A stretch of 64,000 bases of DNA from Eledone cirrhosa (taxonomy: Eukaryota): NCBI GenBank assembly GCA_964016885.1, contig OZ024743.1:173414001-173478000 (forward strand), in the 5' to 3' direction. Below the pieces are notes generated by a model. The model was not told the DNA's origin. It ran no database searches and saw only the letters and a program-made list of their open reading frames with translations. The translations under genes were made by a program, and so were the position numbers. Shown here piece after piece: positions 14,134 through 59,645 of this stretch; position 1 is the first letter of the stretch; the number at the start of each line of letters is the position of its first letter.

Positions 14134-14433
14134 TGTAAAATAAAGTTAAATAAAAGTCAAATGATTAAAATTTAGCTTCGTTTATTACTGCTATATATAT
14201 TTCAGTGACAGCCATCTTTGGCTGTGACCTCTTCAGGCAGTTTGAATTAGTATGGTATAGACAAGTACATATGTTGTTTAGGTGTATAAACAACATATGT
14301 ACTTGTCTATACCATACTAATTCAAACTGCCTGAAGAGGTCACAGCCAAAGATGGCTGTCACTGAAATATATATAGCAGTAATAAACGAAGCTAAATTTT
14401 AATCATTTGACTTTTATTTAACTTTATTTTACA
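14134..14433. repeat. Perfect palindrome (147-bp arms, 6-bp spacer); fold-back PLE terminal repeat whose + strand tail continues to ~14530
   Basis: 14134-14280 is the exact reverse complement of 14287-14433. Confidence 0.97.
14326..14380 (+). ncRNA. Type I hammerhead ribozyme (mirror copy 14187-14241, minus)
   Basis: ACTGC-CTGAAGA-GGTCACAGCCA-AAGA-TGGCTGTCACT-GAAA-TATATATA-GCAGT, then AATAAA at 14381. Confidence 0.85.
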
Positions 14434-14577
14434 CTACTCCGGAGTAACCAAACCAACCTGCGCACTTCGTCGAGTGCTCCAGCCTGCATACTGAGGTGTT
14501 GGTATACAACCAACATAAACTCAAAATCTAAATATATATGTATATATATATATAGATATAGATATAGATATATATAG

Positions 14578-15589
14578 TGAAAGAGTGAAGAATAACATGG
14601 TCAACAGTACAAGAAGGGTTTTATTTACAGTATTAACAATTGTTTCATTGATTAGGGTGTCTAAAAATTGCTAATCACTTGCAGTTGTGTCACTCAATTT
14701 TAAATACGATGTATATAAAACTTAATAAAATTATACATAGCATTTAAAAATTCAAATTACAACATCAGTAATAAAGAAAGAAAAAGAAAAAGAAGAAAAA
14801 AGAAAAAGCTGGAGAAAAAAAGAGAAAGAAAGAAATAAGAAAAAAATAGATAAAGAAAAGGAAAAATAGTGAGAAAAAAAAATAATGATAATAAATGAAT
14901 AATAATAAATAAGTTATAGCGAAGATGATAAAAAATAAATTTAAAAATGTTATGTGCGCAAAGAAAATGAACATAAAATGATTTTTGAAAATAGTTGAGG
15001 AATTGGTGGTTAAAATATAAATATATGATGGTATTGGTGGTTAAAATAGTTATGGTGTTGGTGGCTAAAATATAAAGATATGATGGTATAAACATGAAAG
15101 TATTAAATATATTCATATATGTATTAGTTAAATTAATAAATTAATAAGTTGGAAGTTATATTAGAAGTGAAGATAATACGATAGGTTATAATGTAAGAGA
15201 TGAAATATATTTAGGGAAAGAAAATAAAAGAGTGAAAAAATATAATAGGTTATGATGTTGATTCATTGACAGTTAATAACAATAACAACAATGATGATAA
15301 TGGGTTATTATAATAGACTCAGGTGGTATAATTTGAATTATGGAATTGTTTGGTCGAATCAAGAAAGTTTGAAATTATCGAATTTATTTGCTGCTTTATG
15401 TCTACAGAAAATTGACCGTTCAATTTTGCTGTTAAGCAGCATTTTGTCATATTTTAAAATATGGAATAAATCCATATTACAAAGTCTACAGTGGGACATA
15501 CCAATTTCGTAAGCCATTGCCCCTGACAATTTAGACCAGCTAATCCTGTATTCTTGGTTTGTATCTTTAAGCCGCCAGATTTTATTGGC
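14578..15589 (-). mobile_element. 5'-truncated PLE: GIY-YIG C-terminus plus 3' UTR
   Basis: Minus ~15589-15360 gives [52 protein letters not shown], homologous to ORF 31553-31825; GAAACAATTGTT ribozyme remnant near 14640. Confidence 0.75.
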
Positions 15590-16392
15590 ATATACATATA
15601 TATATATTTATATGTATGTATATATATATATATATATATATATATATATATATATATATATATATATGTATATATATATATATATATATATATATATATA
15701 TGGATATATATATATATATATATATGGATATATATATATATATATATATGGATATATATATATATATATATATATATATATATATGGATATATATATATA
15801 TATATATATATATATATATATATATATATATATATATATATATATGTATGTATATATATATATATATATGTATGTATATATATATCTATATATATGTATG
15901 TATATATTATCTATATATATGTATATATATATCTATATATATGTATATATATATCTATATATATGTATATATATATCTATATATATGTATGTATATATAT
16001 ATCTATATATATGTATATATATATCTATATATATGTATATATATATCTATATATATGTATGTATATATATATCTATATATATGTATGTATATATATATCT
16101 ATATATATGTATGTATATATATATCTATATATATGTATGTATATATATATCTATATATATGTATGTATATATCTATATATATGTATGTATATATATATGT
16201 ATGTATATATCTATATATATGTATGTATGTATATATATGTATATATATATATGTATATATATATATATATGTATATATATGTATGTATATATATATGTGT
16301 ATGTATATATATATGTATATATATGTATATATATATATATATATGTATATATATATACACATATATATACATATATATATATGTATGTATAG
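15590..16392. repeat. Compound (TA)n microsatellite
   Basis: Direct inspection. Confidence 0.97.
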
Positions 16393-16493
16393 TAATAATA
16401 ATAAATTATAAAATCCAAAGAGGGCTCGATAAGGATAAATATATATCAAATATATAAGAACCGTAGAGCGTATATGTATATATATATATATGT

Positions 16494-16824
16494 ACTAGCT
16501 GACGTACCCAGCTTCGCCCGGGTAAACAGATGATAAGAGAAGACAGGTAAAAGAGAAAATGACTGTATTGGATGTTTGTCTGGTTACAGTATGAGGCGAG
16601 TCCGTGGTGTCTGTGTGATACAAAAAACAGTAAAAAAATCTTCCAGATATACCAGATTCTTCGTTGTACCGTTTGTGCATAGTATATGAACAATTCTAGG
16701 TGCTCCCACCTAGAATAGTGACCTCTAGGAGATGGTTCATCTTCTGCCTGATTGTAAAACGTGTATCATTGCATAGACGTGGTTGTTCCACGTTTCTCAA
16801 AAGGATGATGGAAGTTCCAATCTT
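16494..16824 (-). mobile_element. Helitron/Helentron Pif1 helicase remnant
   Basis: Minus 16824-16700 translates KIGTSIILLRNVEQPRLCNDTRFTI...LLEVTILGG (Helitron helicase motif LLRN..P.LCNGTR); ACTAGC...ACCCAGCTTCGCCCGGG terminus at 16494. Confidence 0.75.
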
Positions 16825-57800: not shown

Positions 57801-58296
57801 AATCAAAACATAATGAATCCTGCATTATAAATATTATTCTTCCACGTTATTCTCATTTCTTCATTTCTTCTCTCACTTAAATATACTTACGCTGTGTATT
57901 TATCCTTTGAAACTCATCTCTTCATGCACACTATTTTCACTGTCAATATATATAATCGTTCTTTCTTTCCTCTTCTATCTTTCTCATTTCTTTCTTCTTT
58001 TTTCTTTTTTTCTCTCTCCTTCACATACCACCTTCTTCCAACATTTAAATAAACCGTTATCTTTTCAACCTTTCGGACACTCATTTGCATACACACTCAT
58101 AATTTAGTATCCCCCTCAATAAATGTAATATCTCCACTATCCAGGAAGCTCCAACCGTTAAGGTTGTCTTTTTTTCCGGGTATGTCAATATTTATTTAGA
58201 AAACAAATCTGTATTTTATCTGATGAAAGAGCACCATAATTTGCCTTGGTTGCCCTTGAAATATGTATAATAAAATAAATATGGTTTTATAAATAT
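54866..58296 (-). mobile_element. PLE with ~1.17-kb inverted 3' UTR copy; decayed GIY-YIG region at 56299-57110
   Basis: Arms 54981-56150 and 57114-58296; RTRNILWFTPPFS, CNCRNKSNSPLNNNCLVKNIVY, YSLLWKII...CSLC...CKHR on the minus strand. Confidence 0.9.
58214..58275 (+). ncRNA. Type I hammerhead ribozyme (counterpart at 55002-55063 has a mutated core)
   Basis: TTTTAT-CTGATGA-AAGAGCACCA...TGGTTGCCCTT-GAAA-TATGTATA-ATAAAA. Confidence 0.8.
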
Positions 58297-58630
58297 TGTA
58301 TATATATATATATCACGATAAATTTACGAAGCCATCAACTCTCGCTATTCCCTGTCAGTAATGTGCTCAAAGGAACCATGGGCTAATCATTTCTGTCAAC
58401 AACTTATTTGGCGAAACAAATCTTTTTGGATTTGTACGTATGTGTTAGATAGTTATCGAGGTATGTATTTACACTTTAATTTATACTTTTAATTATTGTA
58501 TGTCTACTCTGCCTTCCATGGGCTATAGATTCCATACACTGGTGGTTTTTCCCTGTTTGATTGGTGGCGCACTATCTCTCTCTCTAGTGTGTTATCTTTT
58601 CAACATATTGTATTATATATATATAAATAT

Positions 58631-58937
58631 ATTGTTATACTTTGGGAGGGTCAATGCTTTCACTCCAGTTTATTATAAATTAAAGAAAAAATTTTTTTTA
58701 ATTTTATTTTTTAAATTTATAAATTTCCGGTTAGTTGGTTGGCTCCACAACCGTACGGTTGTTCATATATTGTCAAAGTTCTTTCGTCACACATTCTGTG
58801 ACCTCTTCAGTGACTTGAAAGAACTTTGACAATATATGAACAACCGTTCAGTTGTGGAACCAACCAACCGGAAATTTATAAAATTTTTTGAAAAATTTTT
58901 TATTTTTTTATTTATAATAAATTGGAGTGAAAGCAAC
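58631..58937 (-). mobile_element. Fold-back solo PLE terminal repeat with hammerhead at 58772-58814 (minus)
   Basis: Arms ~58657-58785 and ~58817-58934; hammerhead identical to 11398-11440. Confidence 0.85.
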
Positions 58938-59333
58938 ATATATGCATATATGTATATATATACATATGTACGGATATATATACATATGTAAATATATACA
59001 TGTATGTATGTATATATATATACATATATATGTATGTATATATATATATACACATATATATGTATGCATATATATATATTTATATGTATGTATATATATA
59101 TATATATATATATATATGTGTGTGTGTGTGTATGCATATATATATATGTGAGTGTGTATGTATATATATACATTTATATGTATATGTGTAAGTATATATA
59201 TACATTTATATGTATATATATATATGTATGTAGATATATGTACATATTTATGTATTTATATACATGTACGTATATATATACATATATATGTATATATATA
59301 TATATATATGTATATATATATATATATATGTAT

Positions 59334-59645
59334 ATAGAATGGAAAACGAAAAATCAGTAATGCATCAGATCTCAATTTATTGTGTGTTACAATTGTTTTC
59401 CTGGCGAGGATATGCTCTGAATTCAATAGACGTGTCCAAGGAACCTGCGAGTACAGAGTCAGGTCGATCCACACACAGATCGCATCTCAAGATGTTCGCC
59501 GGGGAAACAATTGTAATACGCAATAAATTAAGTTCCGATGCATCACTGATATTTCATTTTCCATTCTATCATACTCTTTTCCGTAGGAGCATAGAGTGCT
59601 CAACCGGCATACTGCCTATGGAAGCATCTGAGCTACCATTAGAGA
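59334..59645 (+). mobile_element. Older fold-back PLE terminal fragment
   Basis: Arms ~59334-59408 and ~59496-59569 (diverged); the + arm has GAAACAATTGTA then AATAAA; no CTGANGA half found. Confidence 0.7.

Follow-up and report, generated by a model that had tools for sequence, protein, structure and literature searches.

What are the short back-to-back repeats that recur beside (TA)n runs in a 64,000-nucleotide stretch of the Eledone cirrhosa genome (GenBank assembly GCA_964016885.1, contig OZ024743.1, positions 173,414,001 to 173,478,000 of the forward strand; the whole stretch is hereafter the window)? The 3.0-Gb genome holds abundant (TA)n, long interspersed nuclear element (LINE) fragments, and Penelope-like element (PLE) fragments. 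A first-pass annotation of the window had singled out six fold-backs adjoining (TA)n, and suggested that they may themselves be small self-cleaving RNAs that PLE machinery mobilizes. Our analysis favors a different answer, to which we give a probability of about 75%: five of the six units would be ends of PLEs that bear an open reading frame (ORF), one would be a piece of a 549-nt hammerhead repeat, and every fold-back would have arisen afresh at its own insertion event, with the two ends of a cut (TA)n target priming on the same RNA.

All six units lie within a few bases of where they had been placed, beside TA-rich runs, and are named here U1 (14134), U2 (21847), U3 (31935/32028), U4 (47463), U5 (58627/58657), and U6 (59336). 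In each family the arms terminate at one of two 3' end sites, A or B, with site B some 60-140 nt 3' of site A, and only one arm of a pair is tailed. The features are as follows.

14134..14280, minus strand: U1 tail-less arm, ending at site A, with a hammerhead copy at 14236-14192
14287..14530, plus strand: U1 tailed arm, with a hammerhead at 14331-14375, site A at ~14433, and a tail that reaches site B at ~14530
21847..22033, minus strand: U2 tail-less arm, with a hammerhead at 21946-21897, stopping 2 nt short of the family 5' hot spot
22059..22324, plus strand: U2 tailed arm, with a hammerhead at 22130-22179, site A at ~22231, and site B at ~22324
31935..32214, minus strand: U3 tailed inverted arm, with site B at 31935 and a start directly past the hammerhead; it belongs to the ORF-less 549-nt unit
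32207..32503, plus strand: U3 tail-less arm, carrying a single hammerhead whose core is at 32248 and whose cut is predicted to follow 32308
47463..47664, minus strand: U4 tail-less arm, with one long-stem-II hammerhead at 47658-47524; its start is 1 nt from the family 5' hot spot
47662..47860, plus strand: U4 tailed inverted arm, whose start directly follows the predicted cut site, with its junction at stem I
58627..58936, minus strand: U5, a decayed fold-back from the 3' end of a putative Neptune-like PLE, with one minimal hammerhead from 58810
59336..59645, plus strand: U6, an older fold-back from a putative Hydra-type terminus, with a hammerhead region of altered core at 59436-59515, site A at ~59570, and site B at ~59645

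The arms differ at 0/147 positions in U1, 0/171 in U2, 3/179 in U3, 3/71 in U4, 12/116 in U5, and 10/72 in U6, and the U2 junction carries a short tandem duplication. The longest ATG frames span 33-53 aa, with 102 aa in U6. An AATAAA, described earlier as part of the shared layout, is lacking from U3 on either strand and from the U4 sense arm. The tails had been called unique sequence; they turned out to be the element's own sequence between its two fixed end sites, with U5, which is decayed, having no long tail. An inverted-repeat finder run on the window gave output swamped by (TA)n.

We assigned U1, U2, U4, and U6 as ends of Hydra-type PLEs from protein motifs, the terminal hammerhead, and (TA)n insertion, using the motif definition of PMC8557442 (this and other papers are cited from the parts available to us). 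The U4 parent is a 6.6-kb tandem unit with an open 830-codon frame, represented by the intact element L092, to whose terminus both U4 arms are 100% identical; at L093 an inverted copy heads the U4-family tandem array. The U2 parent is an intact 4119-bp unit with a 738-codon frame (L190), and the U2 tailed arm matches its terminus at 99.6% identity. For U1 the parent is a ~4.1-kb unit whose frame is shifted in the copies examined, and the tailed arm is 100% identical to a terminus preceding an ORF in L274. The U6 tail continues into a homologous frame in L153 and L154, the parents examined for U1 and U6 being frameshifted or partial.

Both the 830- and 738-codon frames carry YRDD and YIG/YVG motifs, as a single ORF with reverse transcriptase (RT) and C-terminal GIY-YIG parts. 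Translations of the Hydra-type parents show RWR/RWK, DKT, and a CNCx5C linker, with no CCHH, and Atlas look-alikes carry HTH_animal, GIY-YIG, and RVT_1; Pfam and PDB sequence searches left the Hydra-type ORFs unrecognized. Of the Hydra-clade traits, a hammerhead in the terminal repeat and insertion at (TA)n are both present. A size generally under 3 kb, which is descriptive of the clade and not diagnostic, is exceeded: the units measure 4.1, 4.1, and 6.6 kb and have long 3' untranslated regions. The window also holds, at 24311-26143 (minus strand), a 5'-truncated Hydra-type ORF whose protein is 85% identical to that of the U4 parent.

U5 is provisionally assigned as the end of a Neptune-like PLE, a group defined by a C-terminal GIY-YIG with a CX2-5CxxC linker and CCHH, because a GIY-YIG C-terminus with a Cys-rich linker lies immediately upstream of the U5 sequence in several loci; in L102, L105, and L114 the linker and a YIG core precede the hammerhead (Pfam GIY-YIG E 0.002, short of the cut-off). 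Two other candidate parents, an ORF near a U5 copy in L155 and an endonuclease fragment in L158, were rejected as separate insertions. At 11270-11500 (minus strand) the U5 family has a second terminus, to which a short stretch of its own tail is attached in inverted orientation. U1, U2, U4, U5, and U6 all map to termini of ORF-bearing PLEs. The involvement of PLE machinery proposed by the first-pass annotation stands.

So does its view that the units are not all debris of coding elements, owing to U3. By the layout of its family, U3 is a piece of an ORF-less, retrozyme-like head-to-tail hammerhead unit: the tail runs straight into what lies upstream of the hammerhead, so that the unit measures ~549 nt, with a longest ATG frame of 67 aa. 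All 30 U3-family loci span the head-to-tail join, and some copies are longer than one unit. The sole multimer among them is the 2.3-mer L361, whose units are 93.6% alike and which has two cores and an inverted partner. A hard stop at the ribozyme cut site, hinted at by L033 and by a 543-nt maximum, was considered and rejected, as 3 of the 30 loci (L361, L374, and L379) clearly run past the predicted cut. Across 90 loci screened, PLE protein matches were few and all outside the unit. Both stems and both end sites of the Hydra-type families recur in the U3 family, which therefore likely borrows a Hydra-type enzyme; it fits a retrozyme carried by such an enzyme.

A sample of loci from the genome shows three regularities, one of them in the pairing of end sites. 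Across four families, 83 of 90 facing pairs had one A and one B end, none had two A or two B ends, and 7 were unclassified, the 90 pairs comprising the first 30 loci of three pattern searches, pairs chosen by spacing from 100-row lists, and loci of the U3 family. Within a locus the arms also match closely: over 185 nt they were identical in 14/17 U4-family loci, including pairs kilobases apart, compared with ~8 differences per 185 nt between loci. A PLE protein studied in vitro, with a predicted dimeric form, likewise extends the two strands and initiates at a pair of internal positions on the RNA (PMC11167929).

A candidate RNA signal accompanies the end sites. In the U1, U2, U4, U6, and U3 families, an RCTC at +4 to +13 with a matching downstream GAGY follows 10 of 10 sites, with A-U and G-C forms of this RCUC/GAGY stem alternating between sites. 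A strict stem filter was passed by 7/10 sites (background 0.1-0.3%), and the stem belongs to the predicted fold at 7/10, with pairing probability above 0.8 at most stem positions. The motif is observed; its likely role is to position one RT subunit.

At the other end of the arms, 5' ends pile up at one place per family. Among the first 30 loci per pattern search, 31/89 arms start within a 15-nt window, against 7/89 in the next 58 nt upstream (by family, 13/29, 10/30, and 8/30 against 3, 2, and 2), and all three hot spots fall on an initiator-like base, the A of TTC|A. U2 and U4 contribute one hot-spot arm each, and 39/89 arms extend more than 60 nt past the hot spot. The U2 hot spot has the same TCACT as a rotifer pseudo-long terminal repeat (pLTR), and the internal promoter of Penelope includes an initiator (PMC2377424). 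We infer that the hot spot is the transcript 5' end, reached by run-off after priming in the 5' repeat. A solo U4-family arm running from 5' hot spot to site A was also seen at 21170-21330 (minus strand).

In the mechanism that we propose, reverse transcription on one RNA would be primed from the two ends of the cut (TA)n target; the end positions are observed, and one DNA end would take site A as its start and its partner would take site B, so that only one arm bears the tail. Where the sites in the transcript's 5' terminal repeat are used, both cDNAs would run off the RNA 5' end after 100-350 nt or stall earlier, a few matching bases then serving to link them head to head. The long, ORF-containing forms would come from the downstream copy of the sites. 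The U3 family would likely be copied from multimeric or circular RNA by the borrowed Hydra-type enzyme. A more specific version, which we hold tentatively and at somewhat less than even odds, has a Hydra-type RT dimer docking on two stem copies of one RNA and priming one (TA)n end per stem. Run-off at the capped 5' end would give strong-stop-like pairs, about one-third of arms, and the same enzyme would copy a putative 549-nt hammerhead circle, ORF-less and retaining both stems. If true, this version would bring inverted pLTRs, solo repeats, the one-sided tail, and the spread of retrozymes under a single mechanism.

Three other explanations need to be weighed against this mechanism. That the 300-570 bp fold-backs are self-cleaving RNAs, transcribed and reinserted as units, would account for the thousands of short fold-backs of similar size and for junctions that recur, such as a palindromic centre formed from the repeat's first bases, the commonest of the U1 family (4/13 short pairs fetched), and the U2 junction. 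Genome-wide counts for U1-U4 speak against it: the exact window junctions occur in 2 (U1), 4 (U2), 1 (U3), and 2 (U4) loci, against 3950, 2233, 165, and 8123 arms matched by the exact family patterns, and a self-propagating fold-back should show many copies with the same centre and ends. Similarity searches under-count here, finding 8-10 candidates for U1 and U2 where the exact pattern finds thousands, and they enrich look-alike junctions; a reading of U2 as amplified in units, to which these had given rise, was rejected after the exact-pattern and junction counts. Loci with a junction in common show different subfamily letters or have their tails on opposite arms (U1/L008, L198/L201, L199/L206, L174/L194), and inter-arm spacing varies continuously from tens of bases to several kb. 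These few shared junctions, differing copies, and continuous spacings identify the fold-back as an insertion product rather than a replicating unit. U1, U2, and U4 are moreover 99.6-100% identical to the ends of ORF-bearing copies. Unit copying is thus very improbable, and for U1-U4 largely refuted. The first-pass annotation had itself reasoned that unique junctions, with every unit on a PLE terminus, would point to ordinary 5'-inverted truncation, and the outcome comes close to this, with 5/6 units on PLE termini and junctions shared by few loci. Random truncation does not describe the short forms either, since their 5' ends cluster at one site per family.

Self-priming, by cDNA snap-back or self-primed antisense RNA (PMC3846280) with endonuclease trimming one end to leave the tail, is an unlikely source of these pairs, even though palindromes occur at junctions both here and in that paper, and arms identical within a locus fit it equally well. 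Snap-back of a sense cDNA would make the tail-less arm a subset of the tailed one, whereas in U1, U2, U3, and U4 the tail-less arm extends further 5', so simple snap-back cannot yield such pairs. The same junction also appears with the tail on either arm, and an antisense template leaves the sense-strand stems 3' of both end sites unexplained. These objections concern the present families, and self-priming may hold in other clades. Closer to the proposed mechanism, and a less remote though still minority possibility, is that dual priming is correct but the 5' pile-up marks an RT pause or an RNA cleavage or processing site, with the short forms being ordinary truncations at a preferred spot. 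The many long copies that cross the site, the inconsistency among families of an extra G before it, and the pyrimidine tract preceding the U2 site favor this. Against it stand a TTC|A common to three families with unrelated flanks, the Penelope initiator, and the TCACT shared with the rotifer pLTR, and long copies are in any case expected from the downstream repeat of read-through RNA.

Several points weigh against dual priming from a capped transcript as we propose it. The 90-pair count combines unselected loci with pairs selected by spacing, and the two in vitro start sites showed no strand preference (PMC11167929). The contrast within and between loci is weak in the young U2 family, where 72% of locus pairs differ by at most 1, and in the U1 family it is also weaker than in the U4 family. 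The stem is not the favored fold at 3/10 sites, the U5 family has no motif after site A, and the ten stems are not independent because the five families are related. U1 and U5 end well short of any hot spot. The extra G, a possible cap copy, precedes the hot-spot base in 6/13 U4-family arms but in 1/8 U2 and 1/8 U1 arms, which leaves the cap evidence mixed, and the transcription start, read-through RNA, and circles are all predictions from genomic DNA. As for U3, its hammerhead is predicted to misfold by 7-9 kcal/mol, an autonomous partner was not found, the 100 listed junction matches include no same-strand 549-nt pairs, and the 30 loci include no long arrays.

The hammerheads themselves appear to be passengers of the terminal repeat, with self-cleavage a prediction. 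A type I descriptor detected 9 cores in the window, while 100 block shuffles averaged 0.01 (maximum 1). Of the 9, 5 lie inside units (two in U1, two in U2, and one in U4), where the descriptor recognizes CUGANGA and GAAA cores, stems I-III, and an NUH cut site. U3 and U5 have a core that the descriptor missed, given the irregular stem II of U3, which also has an 8-bp stem I, and the non-palindromic stem III of U5. The mirrored hammerhead described for the units as a group therefore holds for U1 and U2, while U3, U4, and U5 have a single copy between the arms. Some units had been credited with only the 3' half; U6 has the 5' half as well, its core reading CCAAGGA where two relatives have CTGAGGA. 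Rfam gave no hammerhead match at E<=10 on isolated units, and on the whole window the 150 listed of 475 matches were all to microRNA families, under gathering scores.

Much of this architecture has published counterparts. The Hydra clade of C-terminal endonuclease-containing (EN+) PLEs (Craig et al. 2021, PMC8557442) shares RWR/RWK, DKT, CxCx5C without CCHH, the hammerhead, and (TA)n insertion, as well as an inverted 5'-truncated copy with a tail at one end (Fig. 2 legend), but its units are generally <3 kb with tails of 30-40 nt, compared with 4.1-6.6 kb and about 75-140 nt here. Cervera and de la Pena (2014, PMC4209133) described dual minimal hammerheads, on opposite strands and separated by ~100-700 bp, which they attributed to truncated PLEs, with the same short palindromic stem III and unpaired base before stem II; here, in addition, parents are identified and ends mapped, and the stem II of U4 is very long. 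In vitro, Poseidon PAc (Frangieh et al. 2024, PMC11167929) likewise has two internal RT starts bounding the tail, uses AT-rich targets, extends both strands, and is a predicted dimer, although it is of a different clade and shows no strand preference, whereas in the genomic pairs here the two arms use one site apiece. Animal non-LTR retrozymes (PMC7229834; bioRxiv 10.64898/2026.07.22.740005) resemble the U3 family in being ORF-less, head-to-tail, PLE-linked, and armed with a type I hammerhead; their monomer is ~300 nt, against 549 nt in the U3 family, whose copies, known from DNA, are mostly under two units in inverted pairs, with one dimer.

The inverted-plus-tail layout (PMC8557442, PMC3846280) and opposite-strand hammerhead pairs (PMC4209133) having been published, the window holds new families of a known kind of structure, and a new class of fold-back RNAs is not supported. 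Among titles and abstract openings, with partial coverage, we found no paper stating that facing arms take one end of either kind, or describing the twin stems or a 5' hot spot; supplementary material to PMC8557442 and PMC11167929 may bear on these points. The origin of PLE inverted terminal repeats and their one-sided tail is an open question in these papers (PMC8557442, PMC3846280, PMC11167929), to which the back-to-back arms offer a testable clue about insertion by these telomerase relatives. Young families with intact ORFs, mapped ends, a candidate RNA signal, and a candidate non-autonomous passenger are ready in vitro substrates. In annotation, fold-backs of this kind should be recorded as PLE termini rather than as miniature inverted-repeat transposable elements (MITEs), microRNA hairpins, or a new RNA class.

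Other features of the window and of fetched loci include templated short duplications at head-to-head junctions (L193, L197, L207, L216, L236, and U2), which look like repeated slipping while ends are being joined. A further Hydra-type family is represented at 1500-1800 (minus strand) by a hammerhead terminus with an ACTC...GAGTGCT motif after it. Hammerhead-like PLE ends stop at TA runs at 10290-10340 (minus strand), 13716, 14031, 37594 (minus strand), 44306, 45247-45350, and 58220, and U1 directly follows the one at 14031. PLE endonuclease fragments of several families occur at 3934-4611, 31571-31804, and 56323-57017 (all minus strand) and at 41920-42603 (plus strand). At 45520-45700, and in L153, L317, and L341, there is a palindromic insert that has GAAAC cores and recurs frequently, in many cases within TA runs beside PLE ends. 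Finally, the interval 46300-54900 consists of ~8 kb of near-pure (TA)n with short embedded elements, U4 among them.

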